A stretch of DNA of 43,044 bases from Polyangia bacterium (GTDB lineage: Bacteria; Myxococcota_A; Polyangia; Fen-1088). Position 1 is the first letter of the stretch. Every line of letters starts with the position of its first letter. Both the position numbers and the translations under genes were made by a program. Of the stretch, positions 1-23,642 are shown piece after piece. The stretch covers positions 1 to 43,044 of the forward strand of contig DATAZS010000509.1 of NCBI GenBank assembly GCA_036271915.1. The letters are read 5' to 3'. The notes beneath the pieces are model-generated. The model was not told the origin of the DNA and made no database searches. It saw only the letters and a program-made list of their open reading frames with translations.

Positions 1-1382
1 GCCGAGAGGCGCAGACCGTTCGTGCTGCCGACGTAGGTTCGGCTCAACGCCGGATAGTTGGGCGAGCCGATCGTGAGGCCGGCCGACGCGTCGATCGTGC
101 CGGCGATGAAGATGTCGAGCTCGGCGTCGGGATCGAGCGCGAACGTCAAGGCGTCGCTGCCGCTGACGTCACCGTCGATGTAGAGCGCCGTTCGTCCGTG
201 CGCGACCACCGTGAGGGGATCACTCTGCGAGATGCTCGTCAGATAATAGTTACCGCACGGCAGATCGAGCCGCCGCGGGCTCCCGCGCGTCGCGAAGATC
301 GCGGGATCGAGGTTGATGAGCGCGTCGTCGTTGTTGGGCGCGCGGTGCGCGGCCACGATGGCGGCGATCGGGATGAGCTGCTGCGGTTGACAGTCGCAGG
401 GCGGCGCGACGGTCACCGGTTCGCGCGCCAGCGTCCCGTAGGTCACGTTGGCTCCGAGCATCGACGTCGCCGGCAGGTGAAGCGCTCCGCCGATCTGAAT
501 CGAAGAGCTCGTCGAGACGTCGCCCGCGACGTAGGCGTCGTCACCGACCGCGAAGGTGTCGCTCGTGTGGAACGGGCCGCCCACGCGGAGCTCCTGCTTG
601 ATCGTGTTGGGCGCCTTCGTGTCGACGCCCGTGTCTGCGGCGCACCAGAGGGTTCCCCAGATCTCCGCGGCGGCCGACGTGTCGTAGCCGCCGTTCACGC
701 CGACGCCGCCGCCCAACCCACCGGGGTGATAGAGGCCGAGACGGCTGTCGTACGCGTCGACGAGGAGCTTGTCGCTGACGTGAACGTCCTTGCACGAGCA
801 CAACCCCCACCGAAAGGTCGTCTGCGCGAGGTCGCCGAGGCAGCCTCCCAGGTTCGCCGCGCCCACGATCGGAGGGCCGCCGCCCGCGCAGTTGGTGGAG
901 CCGGCGCCGACGGGGACGGCGGCCTCGCAGCTGCCTTTCACGCAGCCTTCTCCCTTGGCGCAGACCTTCCCGCACGAACCGCAGTTCTGGCTGTCCGACA
1001 TGCGATCGACGCAGCTCTGCGCGCAGCTGTCGAGACCGGGTAGACATCCCGACGCGCAGGATCCGCCGGCGCAGGACAGCGTGCTCGCGCACTTGATGCC
1101 GCAGCCGCCGCAGTTGTTCGGATCGGTGCTCGTCGGGATGCACGCGCCGTTGCAGAGGCTTTGATACGAAGGGCACGCGCCGCCGTCCGACGGTGCGCCG
1201 CTGGTTCCGGCCGTGCCGCCCGTCGAAGGGGAGCCGTCGACGAAGCTCGCGCCGTCGGGCCCGGGAGACAGCGGGGCGACGCTGCTCTTCCCACACCCGC
1301 CCTCGACGAGCGCCGCCGCGACGATGACGGCGAACAAAATCAGTCCGGGGCGCAGAGCGAAGGTCTTCATGATCGTGCTCAT
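1..1382 (-). CDS. Secreted Cys-rich lipoprotein, 3' end cut by the window edge (absent from the ORF track because there is no in-window stop)
   Basis: The reverse frame is open from ATG 1382 (alternative ATG 1370) to position 1. The N-terminus MSTIMKTFALRPGLILFAVIVAAALVEGGCGK looks like a signal peptide with a lipobox-like Cys. It has repeated C-x2-C-G-x3-C motifs (NNCGGCGIKC, QNCGSCGKVC), then a Gly/Asp/Thr-rich tail. Codon third positions are strongly G/C. Confidence 0.8.
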   Translation of the reverse strand, partial: MSTIMKTFALRPGLILFAVIVAAALVEGGCGKSSVAPLSPGPDGASFVDGSPSTGGTAGTSGAPSDGGACPSYQSLCNGACIPTSTDPNNCGGCGIKCASTLSCAGGSCASGCLPGLDSCAQSCVDRMSDSQNCGSCGKVCAKGEGCVKGSCEAAVPVGAGSTNCAGGGPPIVGAANLGGCLGDLAQTTFRWGLCSCKDVHVSDKLLVDAYDSRLGLYHPGGLGGGVGVNGGYDTSAAAEIWGTLWCAADTGVDTKAPNTIKQELRVGGPFHTSDTFAVGDDAYVAGDVSTSSSIQIGGALHLPATSMLGANVTYGTLAREPVTVAPPCDCQPQQLIPIAAIVAAHRAPNNDDALINLDPAIFATRGSPRRLDLPCGNYYLTSISQSDPLTVVAHGRTALYIDGDVSGSDALTFALDPDAELDIFIAGTIDASAGLTIGSPNYPALSRTYVGSTNGLRLS

Positions 1383-1417
1383 CTCGCCGGTTAGGTACCG
1401 CGAGCGCGGGGATCGGC

Positions 1418-2470
1418 TCACCGGAACCGCCACCAGCCCCCGAGGGCCAACGAGAACAAAGGTCCCGACAGGCTGGCAACCTGCGCGCCGCCGTCGAAGA
1501 TCTCGACGGGATGAACGGGAACGCCGAAGGCCCCCGTGAGCGAGAGCCCGAAGGCGGGCGCGACGCGGACAGCGCCACGGAGGCCCGCGCTCAAATACAG
1601 CGCGGTCACCGAGGTGTCGGCGCCGCGTGCGCCGGGCCGCGGCTCGCCGGAGAGGCTCACGTGCATGAGTCGCCCGTCCCCGAGGACCTCGAGGTGCCAC
1701 CGGCGCCCGTGCGGAGGCAGCGAGAGCGCCGCGCCTGCGCTCGCATCGATCGATGTCCCGTGGACGGCGCCGTCGACCGCGTGCGTGGGCGCTTGAGCGC
1801 GAAGGCCGAACTTCGCTTCGAAGGCCAACGACGGCGCGACGGCGACGCGTCCCTCGACGTCGACGCCGGCCTGATCGACGCCGCCGCCGAAGTGATCTGC
1901 CGCCAGCGCGGCGCCGAGCTGCCACCGGTCGTCGCTCGCTCGCGTCGTCGCCGGGGTCGCGATGGCTTTCGTGATCGCGGCGGGAACGGGACGGGAGGGC
2001 GAGGGCGCGTCCGGGAGCGTGAGCTCGAGCCAGCTCGCCCGCAGGAGCTCGTCGACGGCGAGCGCCACGGTGAGCGGCCTCGCGTCGGGCGGCACGGCCC
2101 GCAGGTCCACCTCGCGCGCGACGCGTTTCGCCGTGATCGCGTCGCGAATCACGATCGACATGATCGAGTCCTTCGATCCGGCGAGCTCCACCTCGCTCGC
2201 GTCGTCTGCCGCCTCCGCGCCCGCGACGCACAGCTCGAGGTGGCGGGATCTCAACCCTGCCTCGAGCTGCGTCGCCAACTGTGCGCGGAAGACCACGTCG
2301 ACGGGCACGTCGACCTCGACCAAGCGGACGACGGGCGTTCCGGAAGATCCGCAGGTCAGCGTTGGGTGGGGCGCCTCCGCGCGCGCCGGCTTCGCGAGCA
2401 ACAGCAACAGCAGCAGCGCCGCGCGGGCGCGACTGCTCGCGCGCACGAGGGAGGGAGCTACTCGGTACAA
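1418..2470 (-). CDS. Secreted hypothetical protein, possibly an outer-membrane beta-barrel-like protein
   Basis: Track ORF of 350 aa. Signal peptide RARAALLLLLLLAKPARAEA. The C-terminal half has alternating Gly/Ala/hydrophobic beta-strand-like composition and ends in GGWWRFR. It lies 35 nt upstream of the Cys-rich lipoprotein gene. Confidence 0.7.
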   Translation of the reverse strand: MYRVAPSLVRASSRARAALLLLLLLAKPARAEAPHPTLTCGSSGTPVVRLVEVDVPVDVVFRAQLATQLEAGLRSRHLELCVAGAEAADDASEVELAGSKDSIMSIVIRDAITAKRVAREVDLRAVPPDARPLTVALAVDELLRASWLELTLPDAPSPSRPVPAAITKAIATPATTRASDDRWQLGAALAADHFGGGVDQAGVDVEGRVAVAPSLAFEAKFGLRAQAPTHAVDGAVHGTSIDASAGAALSLPPHGRRWHLEVLGDGRLMHVSLSGEPRPGARGADTSVTALYLSAGLRGAVRVAPAFGLSLTGAFGVPVHPVEIFDGGAQVASLSGPLFSLALGGWWRFR

Positions 2471-3522
2471 CGCGCGACGATCTTCTCTCGGTGAACGCCC
2501 TGTGGATAGCGCGACAGGTAGGTCGCGCGGGCTTCGAGACAGCGTTCCCGATCCCCGGCGGCTTCGTAGGCTTCGACCAGTCGGGCCTGCGCGTCCTGCC
2601 GGAATGGCGCGTCGGTGATGGAGAGGGCATCTCTAAACGCCGCCGCGGCGCCGCGAGGATCGCCGAGCTGATCCAGGCGGAGCCGGCCGAGCTCGAACGC
2701 CGCCAAGCCGGCGCGTGGATCCGACGGATGACGAACGCGCAGGAGGTTGAACAGGCGAGCCGCCGCCGCTGGGTCGTTCGCTGCGCGGAACGCCTCCGCG
2801 CGGATGAGCAGGTCCTTGGTGCTCTCTTCGCCACCGACATTCCTGATTGCTGGGCGCATCTGCGCCGAGGACGCTGGGGCGCTTCCCGGGAGCGGCGTCG
2901 CGACGGGCGGCGTTCCGTCGATCGTCGTGGACCATGTCTCGCCCGCGTCGAGCACGAGTTGATCGCCGGCGTCCGATCGGCCGTCGTCGGCGCGACTCAC
3001 GCGCACGCGTCCGCGCGCCACCTCGACCTCGAGGACGGTCGCGCCGCCATTTTCGAGGAGACGCTCCCGAAAGCGAGCCGCCGAGACCTTGCTCTCGTAG
3101 CCGCGCGACACGACGACGAATGGCTTGCCGTCCGCGGGAAAAACCTCGAGATCAAGGCCACCTCGTTCGAGCGTCATGGCAATACGCTCGGCGCGTGCGG
3201 AGCTCAACGTCACCTTGCTGCCCGGGTCCAGGACGGCGCGCGAGCCGTCGGCCAGCGTGATGGTCTCGCCGCCCGCGGGCGCCTCGATCGTGGTGCCCAA
3301 GGTCGCGGCGGGGACTCGAGCCGCAACCCGATCTCCACCTCGCCGGACCGCGAAGAGGCCCAGCCCACACACGGAGACGGCCGCCGCGGTCAGGAGGACG
3401 AGCCGCCGCTGACGGCGTCGCGGGCCAGCGCGCTCGACGATCGCCGCCACCTGGCGCTCGAGTCTCGCTTCGTCGAGCGCTGGCGAAACGTGACGCCCCA
3501 ATGATTTCGAGGTCTGGGTCAT
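2458..3522 (-). CDS. FecR-like anti-sigma factor with a C-terminal TPR-like region
   Basis: Internal ATG at 3522 (MTQTSKSLGRHVSPALDEARLERQ) of track ORF 2458..4335, forming an ATGA overlap with the stop of the sigma gene. It has one TM segment (LVLLTAAAVSVCGLGLFAV), a FecR-type beta-rich periplasmic part and a helical TPR-like tail. The upstream 271 codons of the track ORF are Arg/Pro junk that overlaps the sigma gene. Confidence 0.8.
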   Translation of the reverse strand: MTQTSKSLGRHVSPALDEARLERQVAAIVERAGPRRRQRRLVLLTAAAVSVCGLGLFAVRRGGDRVAARVPAATLGTTIEAPAGGETITLADGSRAVLDPGSKVTLSSARAERIAMTLERGGLDLEVFPADGKPFVVVSRGYESKVSAARFRERLLENGGATVLEVEVARGRVRVSRADDGRSDAGDQLVLDAGETWSTTIDGTPPVATPLPGSAPASSAQMRPAIRNVGGEESTKDLLIRAEAFRAANDPAAAARLFNLLRVRHPSDPRAGLAAFELGRLRLDQLGDPRGAAAAFRDALSITDAPFRQDAQARLVEAYEAAGDRERCLEARATYLSRYPQGVHREKIVARCTE

Positions 3523-4106
3523 CGTCCCTCGCCGCGCAGAAAGCTGTCGCGCAAGGCCACCTCGGCGGTCGTGATCCGCCGTTTCACGGTCGCGAGGGAC
3601 GCCCCCGTGAGCTTGGCGATCTCGACGAGGCCGAGCCCCTCGACACGCTGAAGGAGGAGAGGGATGCGCAGCGCCGCCGGGAGCCGCTCTGCCAACGCAT
3701 AGAGCCGGCGCAGCTCGAGCGCCTCGTCTTGGGGGACCGACGGTGCAATCAAGGCGTCGAGGTCGATCGCGAGCAGCGCGCGCCCGAGGCCCAGACGGGC
3801 CAGCATGCGTCGTCGGCGGATGGCCTTGCCGACGGTGCGAACGAGAATGCCGCAGATCCAAGCCTCGAACGCCTGCGGATCTTGAAGTCTGTCGAGCGCG
3901 CCGAAGGCGGCCGCGAAGCTGTCCTGGACCACGTCGTCGACATCGCCGTCGCGTCCGAGCAGCCGCAACGCGAGGCCGTTCACGGCCCGCACGTGTCGGC
4001 GCACGAGGATCTCGGCAGAGAACGCGTCGCCGCGACGGGCAGCCTCCACGAGCTGCGCGTCGGAAGACGGGGCGTCGGCACGAAGCCGCGGGACGGCTCG
4101 AAGCAT
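3519..4106 (-). CDS. ECF (sigma-70 family group 4) RNA polymerase sigma factor
   Basis: Region 2 (DVVQDSFAAAFGAL, FEAWICGILVR) and region 4 HTH (GLGLVEIAKLTGASLATVKRRITTA) are present. I place the start at ATG 4106 (MLRAVPRL). The track start at 4148 is a TTG and adds 14 residues. Confidence 0.9.
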   Translation of the reverse strand: MLRAVPRLRADAPSSDAQLVEAARRGDAFSAEILVRRHVRAVNGLALRLLGRDGDVDDVVQDSFAAAFGALDRLQDPQAFEAWICGILVRTVGKAIRRRRMLARLGLGRALLAIDLDALIAPSVPQDEALELRRLYALAERLPAALRIPLLLQRVEGLGLVEIAKLTGASLATVKRRITTAEVALRDSFLRGEGR

Positions 4107-4169
4107 CACCACGCGTGAAAGGTACCCCCAGCGGACAGAACAGCTCAATGCCGCGTGGATCAGGTCGCG

Positions 4170-4442
4170 CTAGGCGGCGATCGCTGCCGGGACCTGGATG
4201 AGTCGTTGAGCATCGGTCGCCTCGAGCTCGGTTCGCGCGTACGTGCTCGACCAGCGACGAAGGTCCGCCGCGGCGCAGCTCGCGCGTATCCCGCGATCGA
4301 GGACCTTCGAGCGCAACACAAAGTCCCGCGTCCACGCCGACCGGATCGCCTCTTGAAAGACCTTCGCTTGCTCGAGCGCCTCGGTCTCGTTGTCGAGCCC
4401 CTCGTCCTCCAGCCCCGTCACGATAAGCTTGTTTGCGTCCAT
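4170..4442 (-). CDS. Small acidic hypothetical protein (90 aa) between cheB and the ECF sigma gene
   Basis: ATG 4442 (MDANKLIVTGLEDEGLDNETEALEQAKVF...) is in frame with the 3' end of track ORF 4170..5051. Composition and G/C third positions are reasonable. I recognise no domain. Confidence 0.45.
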   Translation of the reverse strand: MDANKLIVTGLEDEGLDNETEALEQAKVFQEAIRSAWTRDFVLRSKVLDRGIRASCAAADLRRWSSTYARTELEATDAQRLIQVPAAIAA

Positions 4443-4570: not shown

Positions 4571-5599
4571 CTAGACGCTCTTCAAGATCAGGTCGGCCAT
4601 GTCTTCGATCGACGCGGTGCCGTCGGAGAAACCGGCCTCGACGACCGCCCGCGGCATCCCGTAGACGACACAGGATCCTTCGGACTCGGTCAGCGTGCGG
4701 CCGCGAGCGCCGTGAATGGCGCGCGCGCCCGCGACGCCGTCGTTGCCCATGCCCGTGAGGACGACGCCCAGAACCGCAGATCCGAGCGCGGCGGCGGCGC
4801 TCTCGAACAGCACGTCGACCGAGGGCAAGAACGGGGACGCCGTGGGCGTCGCATCGAGGTGCGTCGTGATGGTGCCCCCGTCGGAGCGGAGGCGAAGGTT
4901 CACGCCGCCGCGCGCGATCGCGACGCTGCCGGGCGCGAGCGTGGCGCCCTCGGACGCCTCGAACACGTGCAGCGCGCAGGCCTCGTCGAGCCGCCGCGCG
5001 AGCGCGTCCGTGTAGCCCGCCGGGATGTGGAGCGCGACGGCGACGGCGCACGGCAGGTCGCCGGGCAGGGCGGTGAGGAGCCGGGTGAGGGCCTGCGGTC
5101 CGCCGGTCGAGGTGCCGATGACGATCAGGCGCACGTCTCCCGTCGCGACAGAGAGCGGGCGGGGCGCGGGCGCCGGCGCGACGAGCCGACGATGCGAGCC
5201 GCCCGCGGCGATGACCTTCGCGACGAGCTCGCTCGACAGCTCGTACAACCGATCGGTCGCGAGCGCCGTTGGTTTCTGAACGAGGTCGACGGCGCCGATC
5301 TGCAAGGCCTCGACACCGAGGGCGCTGTTGCTGTCGGAGATGCTGACGATCACGACGCGTGGTCCCCCGTCGGGCGGCAGCGCGCGCAACACGCCGAGAC
5401 CGTCGAGGTTGGGCATCACGAGATCGAGCGTGACGACGTCCGGCTTCAGCTCGGCGATCTTCTCGAGCGCCTCGAGGCCGTCGCGTGCGACGCCCACGAC
5501 CTCGAGCGCTCTGCTCACGGAGAGCGTCTCGCGGAGGACCTTGCGCGCGAAGGCCGAGTCGTCGACGACGAGGACACGAAGGGGGCGGGCGGGGTTCAT
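4571..5599 (-). CDS. cheB: Chemotaxis response regulator protein-glutamate methylesterase CheB (REC + methylesterase)
   Basis: N-terminal receiver (VLVVDDS, VVTLDLVMP). The catalytic motifs are present: GTSTGGP (Ser), ALHIPAGY (His) and TGMGNDG (Asp). There is a 4-nt overlap with the cheR stop. Confidence 0.95.
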   Translation of the reverse strand: MNPARPLRVLVVDDSAFARKVLRETLSVSRALEVVGVARDGLEALEKIAELKPDVVTLDLVMPNLDGLGVLRALPPDGGPRVVIVSISDSNSALGVEALQIGAVDLVQKPTALATDRLYELSSELVAKVIAAGGSHRRLVAPAPAPRPLSVATGDVRLIVIGTSTGGPQALTRLLTALPGDLPCAVAVALHIPAGYTDALARRLDEACALHVFEASEGATLAPGSVAIARGGVNLRLRSDGGTITTHLDATPTASPFLPSVDVLFESAAAALGSAVLGVVLTGMGNDGVAGARAIHGARGRTLTESEGSCVVYGMPRAVVEAGFSDGTASIEDMADLILKSV

Positions 5600-6414
5600 G
5601 AAACCTTTTTGTAGAGGAAGACGCCGCTCTGCTCTTCGCAGCGCAGCGACGTGCCGAAGCGGAGGAGCGACTCCGAGATCCCGACGAAGAGGGCGCCGTC
5701 GGGAGCGAGGCGCGCGCCCAACCGCTCGATGACCTGCCGCGCGGTCTCGTCGCTAAAATAAATGAGGACGTTGCGGCAGAAGATCACGTCGAACGTCCCC
5801 AGGTCAGCGACGGCGGCGTCATCCATGAGGTTGATCCTCCGCCAATCGATGCGCTGCGTGAGGCCCGGGTCGATCGTGACCTCTCGCTCCTCGACGCGCA
5901 GGCGCGAGGCCGCGAACGCGGGAACATCGGCGCGAACGGCGCGGCGGCTGAAGCGGCTCGAGCGCGCGCGCGAAAGAGCCGCGGCGTTGATGTCGCTCGC
6001 GACGATGTCGACGGCGGACAGCAAGCCGCGCGCCGCCAGCAACAACGCGAGCGTGTGTGGCTCCTCACCCGTGGCGCACGCCGCGCACCAGACGCGCGGG
6101 CGCCTTCCGGCCTCGACGAGGGGCCCGATGAGGTCGTCGACCGCCGCTTCGAGCGGCGCCAGCTCGCGAAACAAGTAGGTCTCTCCGACGACCAGCGCCT
6201 CGATGAGGCTGTCGAGCTCGCGCTGACTCTGCGGGTCGTAGCGAAGAAAGTAGTAGTAGTCGAGCAGCGACTCGAACCCTGCTTCGACGGCGCGCGCGCC
6301 GACCTTCTCGGCGAAGATGGGCGCGTGCGGAACGTCGAAGTGCAGGCCGATCCGCTCTGCGACGAGCGCGCTCAGGATCGAGAACACCTGCGGGGACATC
6401 GGCAGAGGCGGCAT
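5596..6414 (-). CDS. cheR: Chemotaxis protein methyltransferase CheR
   Basis: CheR_N helix bundle plus a SAM-binding domain: ETYLFRE, VWCAACATGEEPHTLALLL, DVIFCRNVLIYF. Confidence 0.95.
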   Translation of the reverse strand: MPPLPMSPQVFSILSALVAERIGLHFDVPHAPIFAEKVGARAVEAGFESLLDYYYFLRYDPQSQRELDSLIEALVVGETYLFRELAPLEAAVDDLIGPLVEAGRRPRVWCAACATGEEPHTLALLLAARGLLSAVDIVASDINAAALSRARSSRFSRRAVRADVPAFAASRLRVEEREVTIDPGLTQRIDWRRINLMDDAAVADLGTFDVIFCRNVLIYFSDETARQVIERLGARLAPDGALFVGISESLLRFGTSLRCEEQSGVFLYKKVS

Positions 6415-6421
6415 GTCCGCC

Positions 6422-8770
6422 TCAGCGCGACAGGAGCAGGGAGCAGATCTGACGGACCTCTGGCTGGGGATCGGCGCTGGCGGCGGTTCGGAGCGCCGCG
6501 AGCGCCTCTTTGCTGCCGAGGACGGCGAGGGCGCTCGCGGCGGCTTTTCGAGCCGCGACGTTGCGCATCGACATCGCCTGCACGAGCGCCGCAGAGGCGT
6601 CGGGGCGTCGCATGCGCGCGAGCGCCGACGTGAGCGCGGGGGCCGTCTCGTCGTCCGCTTCCTCGAGCCCGACGACGAGGCCCGCGATTCGACCTTCGAC
6701 GTGCAGGGACAGCGCCGCCAGCACCTGCTCGGTCACGGTCCCCGTCGCCAGCAAGCTGATGAGCGTTCGCGTCGCGGGGCCGCCCGTCATCGCCGCGAGG
6801 AAGCCGATCGACGCCGTGCGCACGCTCTCGTCGGGATCGGCCGCCGCCACGCGGAACGCGCTCAGCACCGACAGCGATCGGAAGCCGGCGAGCGCCGAGA
6901 TCGCGACCAGGCGAGTCGCCGCGTCGGGTGAGCGCGCCGCGTTCAGAATGAGCGGCAGCGCGTCGGAGCGCTGCGCGACGCCGAGCCCGACGAGCGCCGC
7001 GCGCTGGATGTCGCTGTCGGCGTCCACGGCCGCGGCGTTGAGGGCCTGCGCCGCGGCGTCGCCGCGCAGGCAGGACAGCGCCTCGACGGCGGCGACGCGC
7101 ACCTGGCCCGCGGGATCGGCGAGCAGCCTGATGATCGCCTCAGCCGCCGGCTCGGAGGCCAGCTTGCCCAGCGCCTGGCACGCGTAGTAGCGCACCCACG
7201 CGTCGGGATCGCCGAGGCCCTTCAGCAAGTACGCGCTCGCGCGCAGATCGCCGACGCATTGGCCGAGGCTGCGCATCGCCGCCGCGCGCGTCTTGTCGGA
7301 GGCGTCCTTCGCGGCCGCCAACAGCGCGTCGAACGCGCGCGGATCGTCCATGAAGGGCAGCCCCTGGACGGCCGACTCGCGCACGCGCTCGTCGGGATCG
7401 CGCAGCGCCTCGATGAAGACGTCGAGCGCGAGCGACGAACCGAAATAGCTGAGAATCCGCAGGGCCGCGCGCCGGATGCGCACGTCGGACGATCGCGCGG
7501 CCTCGACGGCGAGTCGGTCGGCCTCGTGGCTGCCGAGGGATTGAATCGCCGCGACCGCGGCGTACGAGACGCGCGGGTCGGCGTCGGCGAGCACGCGGAA
7601 GAGCGCGCCCACCGCGGGGACGGCGCCCATGCGCGCGAGCGCCTCGCAGGCGAGGACGCGCACGTCGGCATCGGGGTCGTTCAGACAATCGACGACGTCG
7701 AGGGTCGCGCTCGCGCTCGAGATGAACGGCAGCAGGGCGCGCTTGTGCGTGCTGTCGCCGTCGCGAATTCCCTGCAGGATCTGCTCCTCGACCTGCGGGC
7801 CGAGCCCGCGCAAAGCCGCCGAGGCGGCGTCTGCGACGGGTGGCGCCGCGTCGAGGAGCGCCGTCAACGCCGGCGCCGCCGACGGATCGTGCGCGACGCC
7901 CAACAAGACGCAGATGGCCACCTGCTCGCCGGGCTCGCCCTGAGTCAGTGCGAGGATCAGCGGTCGAACGATCCCCGCGTCGCGGGCCCCGGCCGCGATC
8001 TCGGCGGCGACGACGTCGCCGTTGCCAGCGCGCTCTTGATAGCGCTGGCGGAGATCGGCGAGCGAGACGGCACACAGGCGCACGATGGCGCTCGCTGATT
8101 TCGAGATGAGCCGTACGAGGGGCGCGACGGCCGCCACGTCGCCCGTTCTGCCCAACGCGCGCGCGGCTTCCGCGGCGTACTGCGGCTGGTCGAGCAGCGC
8201 CGTCAAGGGCGCTACGGCGCGCGGATCGCCGCTGCGCCCCAGCACCTCGATCGCGGGGAAGGCTCGGAAGAAGTTCGCGCTCTTGACGGCGTCCACCAAG
8301 GAATCGACGGCGGCGCGGCCGCCGATGCGCCCAAGCGCCTCGATGGCCGCGGCGGCGACGTTGTCATCGGCGTGCCGGCTGAGCGCGATCACGGTCGACA
8401 GCGCCGAGGTCGTGCGCCGCCGCCCGAGGATCTGGGCGATGTCGGCCAGCACGGGGATCTCGACGTCGGCGGCGGCCATCGCGGCCAGCGCCGGGTCGGC
8501 GTCGCCCGTGAAGGCGGCCAGGGCATCCACCGTGGCGGCGATGCGTCCTTCGTTGTCTCGTCGGTCCTGCAGCGCCTCGCAGAGGAGACCCACGGCGCCC
8601 GGCCCGCTGGCCGCGAGCGCCGCGACGACGGCGCGCCGCACGGCCCAGTTCGGGTCGTCCAACATGCCGATGAGCCGATCGACGCCGCCGCCCTTGGCGA
8701 GGCGCTCGATCTCTTCGACCCGCCGCAGATCCTCGGGGGAGAAGGCTATGCGGCCCGCGACGAGGCTCAT
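6422..8770 (-). CDS. HEAT-repeat (PBS-lyase-type) protein, 782 aa, embedded in the che operon (Cpc7-like)
   Basis: About 16 units of the pattern D(P/A)Dxx(V/I)RxxAxxALGxxG by eye, for example [87 protein letters not shown] overlap with the mcp stop at 8767-8770. Confidence 0.9.
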
Positions 8771-11352
8771 GCACGCTCGGCGGGCGCTGACGACGCGCCC
8801 TGAGCTTCGCGCAGCGCCGTGAGATCGGCCGTGAGGTTCTCGATGGCTTCCGCCTGCTGCGCGTTGGCGGTCCTGACCTTCCCGATGCTCGCGGCCACGG
8901 CGCCGACGTCCTTGGCGGTCGTGATCGCGCCCTTCGCGTGCTGCGCGACCGCCGAGACGATCTCTTTGACGTTCACGCGCATGTCGACGACGGCCTTCGA
9001 GATCTGGGAGCTGGCCGTCGCCTGCTCGGCGGCGGTGCGCGCGATCGTTCCGACGCCCGTGGTCTGCTTGGTCGCCGTGCCCGACAGGGCAGTCAAAGCG
9101 TCGGCCTGCTCCGCGACGGCGCGCGCGGTCTGCTTCGCGATGCGGCGAACGTCGTCGCCGGCCTTCGCGAGGCCTTCGAGCGCCTTGCCTTGCTCTCCCG
9201 TCGCCTTGGTGACCTCGGCGGCGAGCTTCGCGACTTGTCGAGTCGCCACCTCCATCTGTCCCATGGCGCGTGACTGCTCGGCGATCGCCTTCGCGCTCTG
9301 CGTCGTCTCTCTCTTCGTGCTCTCGACGGCCGTCGTCACCTCGGCAGCGCCGCGCGCTTGCTCGGCCAACCCCGTCACCATCCGCTGCGAAGCCGTCGTG
9401 ACCTCGGTCGCGAGCGTCGTCAGTCCCGTGAGCGCCCGCGTCTGCTCGACCATGGCGGCGGTCGTTTGCTGCGCCACCGTGCGCATGCGGGCCGCCGCCT
9501 TCGCGAGCTGCCCGGCGCCCGAGGCCTGCTCCTCGGCGGCGCGCGCCACCTTCTGAATGTTCGTGCCCAGCTGGGTCGTCGTCTTGACGTTCGCGCGGAT
9601 GGCGCGCGCCTGCTCGCCCGTCGCGTCCTTCGTCTGCTTGGCCATGCGCCGCATCTCGGTCGCGGCCTGGCTCAGGCTCTGGCTCGCGTTGACCTGCTCG
9701 GCGGCAGCGCGCGCGACGGCCTTGCCCTCGTCGCTGACGCGCGTCGTGCTCTGCGTGAGGGCCTGGACGGCCTGCGCCTGCTCGCCGCTCGCGCGCTCGA
9801 TGTCGGCGACACCGCGGCTCACGACGTCGATGCCCTGCAGGATCGAGCCGAGCGCCTTCTCGGCGTCGCCCGCGAGCCGCGCGCCCTCGTCGGCGACCTT
9901 GAGGCCGTCGCTCGAGGCCGTGACGGCGTCTCGCGCCGTGCTCTGCAGGCCTCGCACGATCTTCGCGATGTCGGCGCTCGCCGCCGCCGCGCGATCGGAC
10001 AGCGCGCGGATCTCCTCGGCGACGACGGCGAAGCCGCGGCCGTGCTCCCCGGCGCGCGCCGCCTCGATGCTCGCGTTGAGCGACAGCAGGTTCGTGCGGT
10101 CGGCGAGGAGGTTGATGGTCTGGACGATGTCGCCGATCTCCTCGGTGCGCTTGCCCATCTCCTTGATGACGGAGGACGACTCCTGCATCGCTTGTCGAAT
10201 GCCGCCCATGCCCGCGATCGATCGCCCGACGACGGCGCCACCGTCGCGCGCCGTCGCCGTCACCTCGTCGGTCGTGCGACGGGTCGTCGTGATGAGCTCG
10301 ACGATGCGCCGCGCGGCCCCTTCGGCCTGACCCGACGCCGCGGCATTGCTGCTCGCGAGCGTGTTGATTTGATCCGCCGAGCGCGCCATCGCGTGCGCCG
10401 AGCGCGCGAGCTGCTCGATGCTCGTGGCATTCGCGTCGATGACCGCGGCGTTCTTCTCGGCGGTCGCGGCGACCTCCTCGACGGAGGCGGCCAGCTCCGT
10501 GAGCGTGGTCGAGGAGCTCGCGGCGGCGCCTTCGAGCTCCTTGACCTGCTCGGCGATGCCGCGCGCCGAGCGCGACATCTGCTCCGCCGTCGCGGAGGTC
10601 TCCTCGACGGCCGTCGCCATCTCGGCGCCGTCCTTCGCGACGCGTTCGACGGTCGAGGCCGTGCTCGCGATGGCGCCCGTCATCTCGGCGATGCGCGCGC
10701 CGACGCCCTCGGCGTCCGTCGCGAGCCGGGTGACCCCCTTCGCCATGCCGCCCACCGTCGACGTGACCTGCTCCATCGCGGCCGCCGTCGATTGGCCGCG
10801 CTCGGCGAGCTCCTTGATGCTGAGCGTGCTCTCCGTCGTCGCGGCGAGCAGCTCTTCGGCCGACGCCGCCAGATCCTCGGCGTTCGCGCCCACGCCCTTG
10901 ATCGAGCGCGTCGTCTCTTCGAGCATGGCCGCCGTCGACTCGGTCGACGTCGCGAGCGCCTCGCCGTCCTTCTTGACGCCGCCCACGGACGAGGCGATCT
11001 CGCGCAGCCCGCTGCTCACCGTCTGCTGCGCCTGCTCGAGCTCCTTGGCGGTCTCGGCGGCGTGGCCTTGTGAGCGCGCGAGGCTCTGCACGGAGGTCGC
11101 CGTCTCCTCGATGCCGGCCGCGAGGGCCTCCATCGAGACGCGCACCTGTTCGCTCGCGGCGGCCTGCTCATTGCCACCGGCCGCGAGCCGCGTCGCGGCC
11201 TCCTCGATCGACGAGGCCTGCGCCGCCGAGTCGCGGAGCGCGCGCGCGGCGTCGGTCGCGCCCGACAGGGCGTCGTCGAGGCTCACGCGGCGGTTGCCGT
11301 TCGTCCCGCTCGCGTTCTTCGTGCTACTCGGCATGCTCCCGCTCCTCGCCAA
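8767..11352 (-). CDS. mcp: Soluble (no TM segment) methyl-accepting chemotaxis protein, 861 aa, with a central signalling hairpin
   Basis: The canonical MCP tip [50 protein letters not shown] sits at residues 404-454 (AGEHGRGF is encoded at 10030-10053). There is no hydrophobic stretch, and Ala/Glu/Thr/Gln-rich helical sequence flanks it on both sides. Alternative start at ATG 11334. Either start overlaps the cheW 3' end. Confidence 0.93.
8770..9783 (-). repeat. In-frame 84-nt / 28-residue periodic array (about 12 units) forming the C-terminal arm of the MCP
   Basis: An 'EQ' dipeptide occurs at residues 524, 552, 580, 608, 636, 664, 692, 720, 748 and 776. That is ten consecutive intervals of exactly 28 residues. 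Degenerate QH (804) and QQ (832) follow in the same phase. The units are diverged in sequence, so they are not recent DNA duplicates. Confidence 0.85.
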
Positions 11353-11761
11353 TGACCTTCGTGAAATCGATCAACATGAGCAGCCGGTTGCCCGCTTGCG
11401 CGACGGCCTTCACGAGCCCGTCGGTCTGCTGCACGACGACGGGCGGCGGCGGCTGAAAGTCGGCGGCCGGGATCTTCAGCACCTCGCGCGCGCTGTCGAC
11501 CAAGAGGCCGACGGTTCGCTCGCCGCGCTTCATGACGATGACGCGTGAGTCGATCGTCGCCGCGATCCGCTCGAGGCCGAAGACGACGCGCATGTCGAGC
11601 ACGGGGACGACGCGGCCGCGGATCTGTACGAGCCCCGCGACCTGCTCGGCGGCGCCCGGCACCTTCGTCGCGGCCGTGAATGACTCCATCTGCAGGACGT
11701 CGGCCGCGGGCAGGACGTACTCGACGTCCGCGATCTTGCACAGCACGTGGAGCTCGCTCAC
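11324..11761 (-). CDS. cheW: Chemotaxis coupling protein CheW
   Basis: 145-aa single CheW-like domain ([36 protein letters not shown]). 4-nt overlap with the cheA stop. Confidence 0.93.
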
Positions 11762-13827
11762 GACGGCTCCCCCGTCCCATCGGCGACGAGCCGTCCGCCG
11801 AGCGCCGCCAGGTCGAGGACGAGCGTGGGCCGTCCGTCGCCGAGGTCCGTCGTTCCCGACACGCCGTGCACGCGCACGAGCTGATCCTCGAGGGGGCGCA
11901 CGACGACCTCTTGCTGACCGAGCATGCGATCGACCGTGAACGCGAACGGCTCGCCGTTGCGCCTCACGATGATGGCCTTGCGGTGCAGGTCGTCGCCGAC
12001 GCCGAGGCCCAGGATCTCCTCGAGGCGCAGCACGGGCACCGTCTCGCCGCGACGATGAATCATGTCGGTGGCGCGCGCGGCGCGGCGACGATCGGGCTCG
12101 CCCCGCGGCGCCTTTCGCCGATCGGGGCCGCGCACCGTCTTCGCGAGATCGATCTCCTGGATCTCCTCTACCATGGCGACGGGCACGACGAAGGTCTCAC
12201 CGCCGCAGAGGAACGAGAAGGCGTCGACGATCGTGATGCTGAGCGGAATGCGCAGCGAGAACATCGTCCCTCTCCCCTTGGTCGTCGTCATGGACAGCTC
12301 GCCGCGCAGCTCGTCGACGGCGATGCGCTTGACGACGTCCATGCCGACGCCGCGACCGCTCGTCGTCGTGACCTCGGTCTTCGTCGAGAGGCCGGGCCGC
12401 GTCAGCAGCGCGAGCAGGCCGTCGTCGGTCGTGGGAACGGGCGCGCCAGCGCGGCGCGCGACGGCGACTGCGTCGACGCCGCGACCGTCGTCGGTGACGG
12501 TCAATTCGAGCTGGCTGTCGGACAGCTCGTGGCACGCCACCGTGACGAGCCCCGTCTCGGGCTTCCCCGCGGCGCGCCGCTCGGCCGGCGTCTCGAGCGC
12601 GTGGTCGACGGCGTTGCGCACGAGGTGGACGATCGCGGGGAAGATCCGCTCGGCGACGGCCTTGTCGAGCTCGGCGTTGCCCGTCGTCATCGACAGACGC
12701 GCGTCCTTGCCCGTCGTGCGGCTCAGCCCGCGAACGATGAGGGGAATGCGCTCGAGCAGCTCGGTCACCGACACCATGCGCGCGCGCATGATCGAGGCGC
12801 GCAGGTCGCGCAGCTGGCGGCCGTTCTCCGAGATCACCTGGGCGAGCGCGCGCACGTCGGCGCCGGCGGCCCGCATCTCGGCCATCGTCCTTCGAAGGCG
12901 AAACTGGGTCACGACGAGCGCGGACAGGCGCTCGAGCGCCTCGTCGAGCCGCGCGACCTCGACGCGAACGACGCCGCGATGATGGAGATCGTCGTCGGAG
13001 GTCTCTTCGTCGAGTGCTTCCAAATTGGAAGAGCCGGAAGAGCCGGAAGAGTCAGACGAAGGCGCGAGCAAACTGACAGCCGTCAACGCTTCGGGCGTCG
13101 TCGCGGCGGCGGTCGCGAGCTCGGCGTCCGCGCCCTCCGTGAGCAGGACCAGCGCGAAGGCGAGGCCGCCTGGCGAGGCGTCGGTCGTCGCCGTCGAGAC
13201 CGGGACGACCTTGACGATCTCGGCGAGCGTCGCGATGCGCTCGCGGACCGAGGTGATCGTGATCCCCTCGCTCGCGCGCACCGGCGTGGGCACGAAGTGG
13301 ACGATGAGCGCGCGTCGACCGTCGACGAGGCCTTGCGTGAGCTGGCCCCGCTCGGCGGCGTTCATCTTGCCCCAGAGCTCGGCCGGCATCGTCGTCTCGA
13401 CGCTCGCGGCGGCGCGCTCGTCGCCCGTCTGGCGGAGCGCGTTCAACGCGTCGACGAGCTTCGCGGGCGCCGCGGCGACGGTCTTTCGTTTCGCGAGCGC
13501 CTGCACGCGATTCTCGACGGCCTTCACGCCCGCGAGCAGCAGGCTGACGGCGCCCGCGGGCAGCCGCCCAGCGGCCCGATCCGCCTCGCGCAGCACCGAC
13601 TCCATGGCGTGCGCGATGTCGACGATGGGCTCGACGCCCACCATGGCCGCGAGGCCTTTGATGGTATGGAACGAGCGAAAGAGCTCGCGCACCTGTCGCG
13701 GCGTCGCTTGTCCCTTGGCGACAGCCTCCTCGACCGACAGAAGGTTCGTGTTGGCCGACGCGAGGTGCTCCTCGGCCTCGGCCGTGAACCCTGCGATGAA
13801 GTCGGAGGCCTCGAACCCGTCGCTCAC
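11758..13827 (-). CDS. cheA: Chemotaxis histidine kinase CheA
   Basis: HPt P1 with the phospho-His motif FRSFHTIKGLAAMVG, a dimerisation region, HATPase (HLVRNAVDHA, TSGRGVGMDVV) and a C-terminal CheW-like P5 domain. There is no C-terminal receiver. Confidence 0.95.
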   Translation of the reverse strand: MSDGFEASDFIAGFTAEAEEHLASANTNLLSVEEAVAKGQATPRQVRELFRSFHTIKGLAAMVGVEPIVDIAHAMESVLREADRAAGRLPAGAVSLLLAGVKAVENRVQALAKRKTVAAAPAKLVDALNALRQTGDERAAASVETTMPAELWGKMNAAERGQLTQGLVDGRRALIVHFVPTPVRASEGITITSVRERIATLAEIVKVVPVSTATTDASPGGLAFALVLLTEGADAELATAAATTPEALTAVSLLAPSSDSSGSSGSSNLEALDEETSDDDLHHRGVVRVEVARLDEALERLSALVVTQFRLRRTMAEMRAAGADVRALAQVISENGRQLRDLRASIMRARMVSVTELLERIPLIVRGLSRTTGKDARLSMTTGNAELDKAVAERIFPAIVHLVRNAVDHALETPAERRAAGKPETGLVTVACHELSDSQLELTVTDDGRGVDAVAVARRAGAPVPTTDDGLLALLTRPGLSTKTEVTTTSGRGVGMDVVKRIAVDELRGELSMTTTKGRGTMFSLRIPLSITIVDAFSFLCGGETFVVPVAMVEEIQEIDLAKTVRGPDRRKAPRGEPDRRRAARATDMIHRRGETVPVLRLEEILGLGVGDDLHRKAIIVRRNGEPFAFTVDRMLGQQEVVVRPLEDQLVRVHGVSGTTDLGDGRPTLVLDLAALGGRLVADGTGEPS
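13027..13053 (-). repeat. 9-bp tandem repeat x3 (GGAAGAGCC GGAAGAGCC GGAAGAGTC) inside the cheA linker
   Basis: Read directly on the plus strand. It encodes the SSGSSGSS part of the Ser/Asp-rich linker ...APSSDSSGSSGSSNLEALDEETSDDD... between the N-terminal region and the dimerisation domain. Confidence 0.9.
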
Positions 13828-14210
13828 GTCTGGATCCCTGGACGTCCGTTGGTCAACGATTTGACCTCGCCCAGGAGTGCGTCCGGTGAGAAGGGCTTCG
13901 TCATGAAGCGCGTCGCGCCCGCGGCGAGGGCGCGCGCGCGCGAGCTCTCGTCACCGCGCGTCGTCACGACGAGGATCGGCAACGTGCGCAGCTTGTCCTG
14001 ACCGCGAATGAACTCGATGACCTCGTAGCCGCTGATGTCGGGCATGTTGAGATCGAGCACGACGAAGTCGAACGGCCTGAGGGAGAGCCGCTCGAGCGCC
14101 TCGAGGCCGCTGGCCGCTTGCGTGAAGCTCACGCCCTCGATGCCACGCAGACACGCGATCTCCATCTCGCGCATCACCTTGCTGTCGTCGACGATGAGGG
14201 CTTCGGGCAT
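13824..14210 (-). CDS. cheY: Single-domain CheY-like response regulator, first gene of the che operon
   Basis: 128-aa receiver with LIVDDS, FVVLDLNMPDISG, LVVTTRG and FMTKPF. 4-nt overlap with the cheA start. Confidence 0.93.
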   Translation of the reverse strand: MPEALIVDDSKVMREMEIACLRGIEGVSFTQAASGLEALERLSLRPFDFVVLDLNMPDISGYEVIEFIRGQDKLRTLPILVVTTRGDESSRARALAAGATRFMTKPFSPDALLGEVKSLTNGRPGIQT

Positions 14211-14259
14211 GGGTTGCCGCCCGAGGGGCGGGAAGCCAGCCTAAGAACGACTGCATATC

Positions 14260-14287
14260 GTGTCAAGGCCACGAATCCCTTTGACAC
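14260..14287. promoter_or_regulatory. Imperfect inverted repeat GTGTCAAGG-N9-CCTTTGACAC in the divergent che / kinase promoter region
   Basis: Read directly. The 7-bp core arms GTGTCAA / TTGACAC are perfect. The repeat lies in the 105-bp gap between the cheY start (14210) and the kinase GTG (14316), and the right arm contains a TTGACA -35-like hexamer. Confidence 0.3.
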
Positions 14288-14315
14288 CCCGTGACCCACT
14301 GCCTACGTTCGGAAC

Positions 14316-15788
14316 GTGCAGGGCGCCGTAAAATCACGACCTTCCGTTTGGGTCGTCGATGACAGCCCCCTCGACACGGAGCGTGCCCGCAAGGTGCTCG
14401 AGGTCCCGTACGACGTCAGGGTGTTCGCTGACGGCTCCGCGATGCTCGAGCATCTCGCGAGCCATCAACCGCCGGACGTGTTGGTCCTCGACTGGGTCAT
14501 GCCCGGCGTGTCCGGCATCGAGGTCTGCCGCTTCCTTCGCTCGGGCAGCGCGGCGCAGCCGCAGCTCGCGATCTTGTTGCTGACGACGCAGACGCGCACG
14601 GACGACATCGTCGAAGGGCTCGCGGCCGGCGCGAACGACTACCTCGTCAAGCCGTACGCCGATCCCGAGCTGCGCGCGCGCGTCGACGCGCTCGTGCGCT
14701 GGAACGGCCTGCTCGATCGCGCGCAGAAGGCCGAGGCGAGCGTCCTGCAATTGCTCGAGCACGCCCCCGATCCGCTCATCAGCGTCGACCGCGACCATCG
14801 CATCTCGTACGTCAACGCCGAGGCCCAGCGCGTCTTCGGTCAGAGCGCGTCGCAGCTCGCCGGGAAGACTTTGAAGGAGGTGTTGCCGACGTTCCCCGCG
14901 GACCGGCTCGGCGACGCCGTTCGCACGGCGCTGCCGCTCGCCGACATCGAGATCGAAGAGCAAATCTACTCGCCGTCGGTGCGGCTGCTCCCGAGCTCGA
15001 GCGACGGTGGCCTCACGATCGCGCTGCGCGACGTGACCTCGCGGCGGAAGAAGGAGTCGCGGCGCCTCGATTTTTATACGGTGATCGCGCACGACCTGCG
15101 CTCGCCGCTCGGCGCGATGCTCATGCGCACCGATCTCATGCTGCGCGGCCACCGCGGCGTCCTCTCGACGGAGATGATCGCCGATCTTCGGAAGATGGAC
15201 GCCAACATGCGCAGGCTCGTCGCGCTCATCAACGACTTCCTGGACTTTGCGCGCATGGAAGACGCCGCCCACAAGTTGGCGCGCGCGCGCGTCGATCTCG
15301 CCGACCTCATGAACGAGGTGGCCGACGAGTTCAAGCCCCTCGTCGAGAGCACCCACCAGCGCATCGAGCTCGAGGCCGAGCGAGGTGTCGTCGTCGCGCT
15401 CGGCGACAAGAGCCGTCTGCAACAGGTCCTCACGAACCTTCTCGCCAACGCCATCAAGTTCGCGCCCGCGGGCGGCGTCATCGTGCTGCGCGCGCGCATG
15501 CAAGGTCACTGGTGCGAGATCAGCGTCGAGGACGACGGGCCGGGCATTCCGGCTGAGCTCTTGCCGACGCTGTTCAAACGGTACAGCCGCGGACCGACGG
15601 GGATCGGGCAAGCGGCAGGCACGGGGCTGGGCCTTCTCATCGTGCGCGAGATCGTCGAAGCCCACGGCGGAACGGCCGGCGTCGAGAGCGAGCCCAATCG
15701 AGGAAGCCGATTTTGGTTTCGCATCCCGACTGCGGATCCAGGCTTCGTCGAGACCGGACTCGGGATCGCCGAATCGCCGACGGTGTGA
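14316..15788 (+). CDS. REC-PAS-HisKA-HATPase sensor kinase (receiver at the N-terminus)
   Basis: GTG start. Receiver motifs VWVVDDS, VLVLDWVMPGVSG, LLLTTQT and YLVKPY. PAS region (LLEHAPDPLISVDRDHRISYVNAEAQRVFG). H-box VIAHDLRSPL, N-box NLLANAIKF, G-box GTGLGLLIV. Confidence 0.93.
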   Translation: MQGAVKSRPSVWVVDDSPLDTERARKVLEVPYDVRVFADGSAMLEHLASHQPPDVLVLDWVMPGVSGIEVCRFLRSGSAAQPQLAILLLTTQTRTDDIVEGLAAGANDYLVKPYADPELRARVDALVRWNGLLDRAQKAEASVLQLLEHAPDPLISVDRDHRISYVNAEAQRVFGQSASQLAGKTLKEVLPTFPADRLGDAVRTALPLADIEIEEQIYSPSVRLLPSSSDGGLTIALRDVTSRRKKESRRLDFYTVIAHDLRSPLGAMLMRTDLMLRGHRGVLSTEMIADLRKMDANMRRLVALINDFLDFARMEDAAHKLARARVDLADLMNEVADEFKPLVESTHQRIELEAERGVVVALGDKSRLQQVLTNLLANAIKFAPAGGVIVLRARMQGHWCEISVEDDGPGIPAELLPTLFKRYSRGPTGIGQAAGTGLGLLIVREIVEAHGGTAGVESEPNRGSRFWFRIPTADPGFVETGLGIAESPTV

Positions 15789-15871: not shown

Positions 15872-16240
15872 ATGAGATCCGTCCGCTCAATTCTGATCGT
15901 CGATGACGATGAAGATGTTCGAACGACGCTGGTGGACGCCCTGCGGTTCGAAGGCTTCGCCGTCGAATCGGCGCGCGACGGTCGGGAGGGCCTGGCTTGG
16001 CTTCGTGGCCATCAGGAGACGCCGTGGGTCGTCTTGCTCGATCTGATGATGCCCGTCATGAACGGTCGGGCGTTTCTCGAGGTCAGGGCGAGCGAGCCGG
16101 CGTTGGCTGCGATCCCCGTGATCGTCCTGACCGCGGGGGGCGACTGCCGCGAGCTCAAGGCCGCGGGATACATCGAGCACTGCCTGCCGAAGACGACGTC
16201 GCTTCAAGAGATCGTCGCCACGATCGAAGCGTGCGGCTGA
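15872..16240 (+). CDS. Orphan single-domain response regulator (receiver only)
   Basis: 122 aa with ILIVDDDEDV, VVLLDLMMPVMNG, VIVLTAGG and CLPKT. Confidence 0.9.
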   Translation: MRSVRSILIVDDDEDVRTTLVDALRFEGFAVESARDGREGLAWLRGHQETPWVVLLDLMMPVMNGRAFLEVRASEPALAAIPVIVLTAGGDCRELKAAGYIEHCLPKTTSLQEIVATIEACG

Positions 16241-16300: not shown

Positions 16301-16317
16301 ACACCTTTCAAAGGTGT
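16301..16317. promoter_or_regulatory. Perfect 8-bp-arm palindrome ACACCTTT-c-AAAGGTGT overlapping the annotated GTG start of the next receiver gene
   Basis: Read directly. The GTG at 16314-16316 lies inside the right arm. Confidence 0.3.
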
Positions 16318-16721
16318 CGGAGACGGGCCCGGTGTTGCCTCGAAGACGCCATGACTGGCGCGTCTTGGTCATCGAGGATGACTTCGAAATTCAGGTGACT
16401 GTTGCCGATTTGCTGCGCGAGGAGGGGTATGAGGTCACGTGCGCCGCCAACGGCGCCGAGGGGCTGAGAGCGCTGGAGGCGATGTCGAAGCTCCCGTCCC
16501 TGATCATCTTGGACATGTGGATGCCTGAGATGGATGGCGTGCGATTTCTGGCCGTTCAGAGAACAATCCCGCGCTTCGCCAACATACCCGTGCTGATCAC
16601 GACGGCCGTCAAACCCAGCCGCGCCGTCGACGAGATCGCGGGCGTTCCCGTCCTCATGAAACCGCTGAGCGCGACGTCGCTCCTCGCGGCCGTCGAGCAA
16701 CTGCGATGCGATGGGCCTTGA
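16314..16721 (+). CDS. Second orphan single-domain response regulator
   Basis: Receiver motifs VLVIEDD, LIILDMWMPEMDG, VLITTA and LMKPL. The start is ambiguous: GTG 16314 (inside the palindrome, no spaced RBS), or GTG 16332 / TTG 16335, which sit 9-12 nt after GGAG at 16319-16322. Confidence 0.88.
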   Translation: MSETGPVLPRRRHDWRVLVIEDDFEIQVTVADLLREEGYEVTCAANGAEGLRALEAMSKLPSLIILDMWMPEMDGVRFLAVQRTIPRFANIPVLITTAVKPSRAVDEIAGVPVLMKPLSATSLLAAVEQLRCDGP

Positions 16722-18761: not shown

Positions 18762-21799
<3,038 letters not shown>

Positions 21800-21803
<4 letters not shown>

Positions 21804-23603: not shown

Positions 23604-23642
23604 GATTTCTATTCGGCGGTCGTGTACGTCCAGCGCCCGCAG

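Follow-up and report, generated by a model that had tools for sequence, protein, structure and literature searches.

On the minus strand of contig DATAZS010000509.1, from an uncultured Polyangia-type bacterium, seven chemosensory genes lie packed head to tail between positions 4571 and 14210, and judged by sequence comparison the operon that they form is an orthologue of the Che7 system of Myxococcus xanthus, beyond mere similarity. The contig (43,044 bp, ~70% G+C) was analysed whole and is referred to here as the window; it belongs to a metagenome bin of 4.1 Mb that is 64% complete, from a lineage with a genome of ~6 Mb. We regard it as highly probable that this Che7 orthologue gives its Polyangia-type myxobacterium a chemosensory pathway of the cytoplasm whose target is a protein partner and not a motor. 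A preliminary description of the same DNA had proposed a Che7-like, non-motility operon with a HEAT-repeat protein encoded between mcp and cheR, a proposal that is borne out here and sharpened to orthology with Che7.

The Che7 system itself has already been described in M. xanthus, and the window holds an intact copy that is ordinary for its lineage. New here are the strict co-occurrence of a divergently transcribed receiver-PAS (REC-PAS) kinase with the seven-gene module, and the form of the receptor, a gap-free hairpin of ~56 heptads per arm in which Glu-Gln pairs recur every 28 residues.

Gene order and orthology with Che7

The operon opens with cheY (13824-14210), which encodes a single-domain response regulator of 128 amino acids (aa; Pfam Response_reg, E 2e-25), followed by cheA (11758-13827; 689 aa), in whose product Pfam recognises Hpt, dimerisation, HATPase and CheW-like domains but not a receiver, and by cheW (11324-11761; 145 aa), which encodes a coupling protein (Pfam CheW, E 5e-27). 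The mcp gene (8767-11334; 855 aa) specifies a soluble methyl-accepting chemotaxis protein (MCP) with a Pfam MCPsignal match at residues 365-540 only, and the next gene (6422-8770; 782 aa) the HEAT-repeat protein (Pfam HEAT_2, E 3e-77, in eight stretches). The last two genes are cheR (5596-6414; 272 aa), for a methyltransferase without a tetratricopeptide repeat (TPR) extension (Pfam CheR, E 1e-38), and cheB (4571-5599; 342 aa), for a protein with receiver and methylesterase/deamidase domains by Pfam. All seven are on the minus strand at the coordinates first described, and every domain assigned to them is backed by Pfam. The coordinates of the open reading frames (ORFs) likewise confirm the junctions, namely 4-nt overlaps at cheY/cheA (13824-13827), cheA/cheW (11758-11761), mcp/HEAT (8767-8770) and cheR/cheB (5596-5599), and a 7-nt gap between the HEAT gene and cheR (6415-6421). 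For the receptor, the likeliest start is the ATG at 11334, giving 855 aa, and not the alternative listed TTG at 11352, which would give 861 aa; with the ATG, cheW and mcp overlap by 11 nt, the value that is also commonest among the orthologues. G+C at third codon positions is 0.88-0.94 across all seven genes, and hydropathy analysis found no membrane-spanning segment in any of the seven proteins.

The residues expected of a working phosphorelay and adaptation system are intact. From sequence and alignment with PDB entries, CheY keeps D8/D9, the phospho-acceptor D53, T83, F102 and K105, and CheA has H54 within an HTIKG motif. CheB contains candidate catalytic motifs with Ser (GTSTGGP), His (ALHIP) and Asp (GMGNDG) and scores 324 bits against the NCBIfam CheB subfamily model (cut-off 293 bits), and the S-adenosylmethionine motif CATGEEP is present in CheR. 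CheY is the most conserved member of the module (mean 69% identity among orthologues); its alpha4-beta5-alpha5 face is no more conserved than the rest of the protein in the orthologue comparison, which adds no support for that face as an interface.

The route to M. xanthus runs through a Corallococcus member of the HEAT family, whose 90%-identity cluster contains ABF92517.1, a protein of 788 aa named 'PBS lyase HEAT-like repeat protein [Myxococcus xanthus DK 1622]' (PBS, phycobilisome). The gene for ABF92517.1 lies in a locus whose protein sizes and locus-tag order agree with the published tables for Che7, MXAN_6959-6965, the receptor of which, Mcp7, is cytoplasmic and without a HAMP domain (PMC3945109). 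Gene content and order are identical at the two loci, as is the pattern of junction overlaps, and from CheY to CheB the sizes of the proteins are 128/125, 689/687, 145/148, 855/850, 782/788, 272/273 and 342/348 aa (window/M. xanthus). Both receptors are soluble and lack a sensor domain, and at both loci a gene for a REC-first PAS kinase lies directly upstream of cheY. Aligned end to end with their Che7 counterparts, the window proteins are 69% (CheY, 123 aa), 51% (CheA, 696 columns), 66% (CheW), 51% (receptor, 844 aa), 52% (HEAT protein, 779 aa), 55% (CheR) and 61% (CheB) identical. The receptor and the HEAT protein had initially been thought unusually large, which they are not, given that Mcp7 has 850 aa (821 in PMC3945109) and Cpc7, the M. 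xanthus HEAT protein, 788, and that the family medians are 849 and 784 aa.

The separation of orthologue from paralogue was examined for two of the proteins, CheA and the HEAT protein, in genomes of Corallococcus, Sorangium and Minicystis, each with six to nine CheA-like genes. There, the window CheA scores 632-748 bits against the che7-type locus and 143-179 bits against the next paralogue, and the window HEAT protein finds one strong orthologue per genome (656-716 bits), all other HEAT proteins scoring at most 61 bits. These gaps identify the operon as an orthologue of Che7 and not a look-alike, and the paralogue scores also speak against the related, HEAT-containing Che8 type, which groups with Che7 and Dif in phylogeny (PMC3945109).

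The M. xanthus and window loci differ at their edges and in their hosts. In M. xanthus, cheB is followed by genes for a fatty-acid desaturase (des7, 324 aa), a PilZ protein and a receiver, none of which follows cheB in the window; the kinase upstream of the M. xanthus genes, MXAN_6966, has 655 aa and is encoded co-directionally, whereas that of the window, 32% identical to it, has 490 aa and is divergent; and the window host belongs to an uncultured Polyangia-type lineage. The missing desaturase had been noted in the preliminary description as a departure from Che7. The absence stands, but it is no departure from the family, since a desaturase gene follows cheB in both Myxococcus loci and in none of 80 others, Corallococcus and Hyalangium included. 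Indeed, the trio of des7, PilZ and receiver genes adjoins the operon only in the Myxococcus loci examined, and in Corallococcus cheB is followed by the gene for a convergent PAS kinase. The desaturase is thus a genus-level addition and not a defining feature of the family.

The 80 related loci were picked by similarity to the HEAT protein from a scan of species genomes, and gene order and junctions were counted only where the DNA reaches the neighbouring genes. They include loci of Sorangium, Polyangium, Minicystis, Corallococcus, Hyalangium, Archangium, Anaeromyxobacteraceae and Kofleriaceae, together with a few bins of Bdellovibrionota and Planctomycetota; the search from which they come returned a large family of very uniform length (~780 aa), mostly from bins of Polyangia and Myxococcales. 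As far as the DNA of the 80 loci extends, none of the seven genes is missing and neither their order nor their strand changes; the linkage of che genes to a HEAT gene is recurrent in every locus that extends to neighbouring che genes. Median lengths from CheY to CheB are 128, 680, 145, 849, 784, 274 and 344 aa, and the 4-nt overlaps are kept at cheY/cheA in 49 of 71 loci, at cheA/cheW in 64 of 70, at mcp/HEAT in 59 of 72 and at cheR/cheB in 58 of 74. The recurrence of the same order and junction pattern in 80 independent loci shows that the operon is not a chance arrangement.

Loci selected by their HEAT protein could make the linkage circular, and a search from the side of the receptor frees it of that circularity. 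Of the 89 genomes in the window's order, which are all bins of one family, the HEAT protein is present in 19, a patchy distribution, and an Mcp7-type receptor is encoded in exactly the same 19, always beside the HEAT protein. Within the window's genus the module occurs in one of seven other genomes, and in the family holding Corallococcus in 27 of 81 sampled genomes. A phylum-level search gave 7 of 401 genomes, a result on which we do not rely, two candidates per genome having been scored in an odd-looking sample. A FastTree phylogeny of the seven concatenated proteins (56 rows) broadly tracks taxonomy: the window falls among uncultured Polyangia loci, a group that is sister to Kofleriaceae and Polyangiaceae; Myxococcus, Corallococcus, Hyalangium and Anaeromyxobacteraceae form a separate clade; the Bdellovibrionota loci form one clade; and the two Planctomycetota loci form a single clade nested among Myxococcota. 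The simplest reading is that the module is an old myxobacterial unit that has often been lost and occasionally transferred.

Three further observations concern individual loci. Bins of Planctomycetota (L059, L072) and Bdellovibrionota (L023, L026, L036, L079) carry the full module and the divergent kinase gene where the DNA reaches, which suggests either transfer of the whole unit or mis-binned contigs. A close relative, P0006 (81% identity; ENA contig of 43,875 bp), is recorded as encoding a HEAT-CheR fusion of 1057 aa; in the window a mere 7 nt separate the two genes, so the fusion may reflect a lost stop codon or an assembly error and not a true fusion. A receptor orthologue from the same family as the window (G405:C13:59909-62416) has a single in-frame TGA, which could mark a pseudogene or a sequencing error.

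Receptor hairpin and HEAT solenoid

The receptor was described at the outset as having no hydrophobic segment, in agreement with its highest 19-residue Kyte-Doolittle mean of 1.03. Pfam finds MCPsignal only, with neither a HAMP domain nor a ligand-binding or sensor domain, and there is no C-terminal pentapeptide. The motif of the hairpin tip is found near residue 430, both arms show heptad periodicity over their length, and the autocorrelation of the sequence peaks only at multiples of 7, most strongly at 28, 56 and 112. Since 66 orthologues align without a gap from residue 36 to ~805 and the tip is near 430, the conserved coiled coil extends over up to ~395 residues, or ~56 heptads, per arm. 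The fully extended hairpin would measure ~55-60 nm, calculated at 1.5 Å per residue. The AlphaFold2 (AF2) model, with a predicted local distance difference test (pLDDT) score of 71.6, has four long helices (14-179, 229-427, 433-631 and 683-845), and its low-confidence stretches, 181-223 and 635-678, are symmetric about the tip and coincide with the nearly invariant G200 and G655. These two residues may constitute a second glycine hinge in the modelled hairpin.

Potential modification sites are numerous. Conserved Glu-Gln pairs recur at a spacing of 28 residues at positions 518, 546, 574, 602, 630, 658, 686, 714, 742 and 770, the N-terminal arm holds further Glu-Glu or Glu-Gln pairs, and motifs that follow the strict methylation consensus number 7, against 1.05 +/- 1.04 in shuffled sequences.

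Among solved structures the best match is Thermotoga maritima TM1143 (PDB 2CH7), a receptor of the 44H class, which covers the signalling core (residues 356-562, E 2e-27). The two receptors have the hairpin tip motif in common, and each is without gaps within its class, but the gap-free coiled coil of the window receptor extends to ~395 residues per arm. To our knowledge the largest heptad class described for MCPs is 64H in total (Alexander-Zhulin classes, 24H-64H), a limit beyond which the window coiled coil would extend far. Mcp7 itself has been listed among the 40H receptors by its core (PMC3945109). Soluble receptors of cytoplasmic clusters with a dedicated CheA and CheW are also found in Rhodobacter sphaeroides CheOp3 (TlpT/TlpC) and in M. 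xanthus FrzCD. Those systems steer motility and have receptors of ordinary length, in contrast to the window system, with receptor arms of ~56 heptads and a pathway that would act on a HEAT protein.

The HEAT protein is, as first described, a HEAT-repeat protein throughout: its AF2 model (pLDDT 94.6; predicted template modelling score 0.85) is an all-helical solenoid of 49 helices. Its fold matches are generic solenoids that serve as interaction scaffolds, namely CAND1, SF3B1, karyopherins and the PP2A-A subunit, and NCBIfam has no model specific to the family. Invariant residues cluster at ~110-210, where they include N166, F167/F168, R169, P172 and G178-P183, and at 521-559; both clusters are candidate partner sites on the strength of their conservation.

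Divergent kinase, control region and surrounding genes

Upstream of cheY, on the plus strand, lies the gene for a REC-PAS-HisKA-HATPase kinase (14316-15788; 490 aa, domains by Pfam). With orthologues required to reach 40% identity and 85% coverage and to lie no more than 600 bp from cheY, the divergent kinase is found in 45 of the 69 loci that have enough upstream DNA, those of Bdellovibrionota and Planctomycetota among them, and it is the sole neighbour that is widely common across the family. In the window's order all 18 genomes that encode the kinase are carriers of the module, and the 70 genomes that lack the module lack the kinase as well; in the nineteenth carrier the contig ends before the kinase site. 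Other REC-first PAS kinases occupy the same place elsewhere, a REC-PAS-PAS-HK-REC protein of 846 aa (HK, histidine kinase) in Sorangium, a divergent kinase of 553 aa in Corallococcus and the co-directional MXAN_6966 in M. xanthus, the last listed as a receiver-first hybrid kinase (PMC4603909). In the literature accessible to us, no paper was found that connects this kinase with Che7. On this evidence we propose the kinase as an eighth gene of the module; most likely it represents a second branch of the Che7-type pathway, a role suggested by the observed co-occurrence.

Two genes for stand-alone receivers follow that of the kinase. The first (15872-16240, plus strand; 122 aa, Pfam Response_reg) recurs after the kinase gene at the four closest loci, in copies that are 57-73% identical, and in weaker form at some others; its neighbour cluster spans 17 loci, and it is conserved in part of the family only. 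The second (16314-16721) is not separately conserved. Among the receivers of the window, these two are each other's closest match, and the receiver of the kinase is closest to CheY (54 bits).

The 105 bp between cheY and the kinase gene (14211-14315) form a shared control region. A candidate promoter for the che genes consists of TTGACA (14261-14266) and TAGGCT (14238-14243) on the minus strand, separated by a 17-nt spacer, and a further TTGACA faces the kinase gene on the opposite strand (14281-14286). In 74 orthologous regions, TTGAC occurs upstream of cheY in 48, against ~7 in shuffles, and TTGACN-N16-18-TAnnnT in 16, against 0.12 in shuffles. A generic promoter scan called no promoter in the control region, so the proposal of a che promoter rests on this conservation. 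An inverted-repeat operator was considered for the TTGACA pair and rejected: because the distance between the boxes differs from locus to locus, they are better read as two back-to-back candidate -35 boxes. The generic scan also called no terminator after cheB, finding only terminators at chance level.

On the other side, the minus-strand genes that follow cheB (3-4442) encode, from a 90-codon ORF without a family match onwards, an extracytoplasmic function (ECF) sigma factor, a FecR/TPR anti-sigma factor, a 350-aa protein without a family match and a Cys-rich, Stig1-like secreted protein, and none of them adjoins the module in any of the 80 related loci. The 90-codon ORF, the ECF sigma factor and the FecR-like anti-sigma factor were considered as members of the module and rejected, having no counterpart in the related loci, including the one from the same genus; the conserved unit therefore ends at cheB. 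Farther along the plus strand is a second signalling neighbourhood (18762-25763), which comprises genes for a CheB-CheR fusion of 1013 aa that includes PAS domains, a hybrid kinase (21800-23488) that starts inside the stop codon of the fusion gene, a LuxR-type response regulator (23665-24348) and a kinase (24420-25763); the related loci end before this point. A 542-aa protein with a TonB C-terminal domain and HEAT repeats, encoded on the minus strand at 39706-41334, is unrelated to the Cpc7 family.

Elsewhere in the bin, contig C250 (6.6 kb) carries a second che cluster with cheW and genes for a 520-aa MCP, a 685-aa CheA that a search with the dimerisation domain missed, CheB and a receiver protein. 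Other contigs of the bin encode three T2SSE-type ATPases and a single FHIPEP (FlhA/SctV-type) export-gate protein. The FHIPEP gene (C464:3316-5253) adjoins a gene that resembles thyX by sequence motif only, and FliG and flagellin were not found in the bin, which is 64% complete; the gene may belong to a non-flagellar type III system.

Proposed pathway, alternatives and significance

In the pathway that we propose, the giant soluble receptor, which lacks a ligand-binding domain, would form arrays with CheW and CheA. CheA would autophosphorylate at H54 and pass the phosphoryl group to D53 of CheY and to the receiver of CheB, and phosphorylated CheY (CheY~P) would bind the co-translated HEAT solenoid, the orthologue of Cpc7, which as a large interaction scaffold would relay the state of the pathway to downstream partners. 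CheR and CheB would adapt the receptor through the many Glu-Glu/Glu-Gln sites along both arms. The N-terminal receiver of the kinase would take phosphoryl groups from CheA or serve as a phosphate sink, and the core of the kinase would presumably talk to the adjacent stand-alone receiver. The sequence analysis itself establishes the gene content, the orthology, the intact active-site residues, the synteny, the co-occurrence and the fold of the HEAT solenoid; each phosphotransfer step, CheY-HEAT binding, methylation at the candidate sites and the part played by the kinase are here drawn by analogy from knowledge of the protein families and from work on M. xanthus, where CheY7 is reported to bind Cpc7 and to regulate development (Darnell 2014, J Bacteriol 196:3160, as cited in PMC11514114 and PMC9040617) and where Mcp7 interacts with CheW7 and forms one or two mobile subpolar clusters (PMC3945109).

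Several points weigh against this proposal. The host is known from a 64%-complete metagenome bin; in the papers that cite the work, binding of a CheY to a HEAT protein is reported for the M. xanthus pair only, to which the window proteins are 69% and 52% identical; and the developmental phenotype of M. xanthus cannot simply be carried over to the lineage of the window. The link from CheA to the receiver of the kinase is suggested only by co-occurrence and a weak sequence similarity, and the M. xanthus kinase is both co-directional and only 32% identical to that of the window. Finally, the conserved translational coupling of mcp to the HEAT gene would fit membership of the HEAT protein in the receptor complex just as well.

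This last point leads to an alternative in which the HEAT protein, instead of being the output, would belong to the receptor array as a structural or sensory component, for instance as a scaffold attached along the very long hairpin or as the carrier of the stimulus; the binding of CheY~P would then be feedback, and the real output would run through the REC-PAS kinase to gene expression. The receptor has no sensor domain, the stop codon of mcp overlaps the start of the HEAT gene by 4 nt in most loci, as given above, and in the window's order the co-occurrence of receptor, HEAT protein and kinase is perfect. The fold, moreover, resembles clamp-like scaffolds such as CAND1 and PP2A-A, and the invariant block outside the repeat pattern (N166 to P183) suggests one specific partner. 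Genetics and biochemistry in M. xanthus, as cited in PMC11514114 and PMC9040617, nevertheless place Cpc7 downstream of CheY7, translational coupling between neighbours is frequent in che operons even where the products do not bind, and the present analysis obtained no evidence of contact between receptor and HEAT protein; we therefore consider a place for the HEAT protein in the array unlikely, if worth keeping in mind. Control of motility, be it gliding, type IV pili or flagella, by this operon with the motor genes elsewhere in the genome is far less probable still. The T2SSE-type ATPases and the FHIPEP protein would fit it, and soluble receptors such as FrzCD do control myxobacterial motility (PMC3945109), but the cluster is orthologous to Che7 and not to Frz or Dif, and the second che cluster on C250 is available for such a task. 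Neither FliG nor flagellin was found in the bin, the FHIPEP gene lies beside the thyX-like gene, and no motility gene adjoins the operon, either in the window or in the DNA that flanks the related loci, in line with the first report that nothing flagellar or pilus-related is encoded in the window.

An enzymatic role for the HEAT protein must also be weighed, given the annotation of its M. xanthus counterpart as a PBS lyase HEAT-like repeat protein. Its best NCBIfam matches are indeed NblB (103 bits) and CpcE (69 bits), and five cysteines (C64, C287, C362, C375 and C531) are invariant or nearly so in an alignment of 12 sequences, which would suit a protein of the CpcE, CpcF or NblB kind that attaches or removes a cofactor under the control of the Che proteins. 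Both scores, however, fall well short of the curated cut-offs, 300 bits for NblB and 330 bits for CpcE, and the matches cover generic repeats only; across 147 sequences C362 alone stays nearly invariant. The window protein is also three times as long as CpcE, these bacteria have no phycobiliproteins, and the fold matches are scaffolds and not enzymes, so that we give a lyase-like activity very little credence.

A broader reading departs from the published picture of Che7, in the size of the functional unit and in the way it works. The unit would be a module of eight or more genes in which CheA also feeds the receiver of the kinase, so that the array drives a two-component cascade, while the receptor acts as a high-capacity memory that is slow to reset and the HEAT protein binds along it. 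To this memory would belong the ~56 heptads per arm, a second conserved glycine hinge at G200/G655 and ten invariant Glu-Gln pairs exactly four heptads apart, and the Glu-Gln sites would need deamidation by CheB before methylation. We put this broader scheme forward as speculation that is more probably wrong than right.

A single further copy of Che7 changes little by itself, and its use is comparative. Set beside its relatives, the window identifies the core of the Che7 family as seven genes with fixed order and coupling, which encode among others an indel-free giant receptor and a HEAT protein of ~784 aa, with a REC-first PAS kinase nearby, and it marks the desaturase, the PilZ protein and the receiver after cheB as features specific to Myxococcus. 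A connection to the desaturase and to temperature is accordingly unlikely to be the ancestral function of the system. MXAN_6966 and its counterparts become candidates for the missing link from Che7 to gene expression, and the periodic Glu-Gln sites make the receptor well suited to the study of adaptation with many modification sites.

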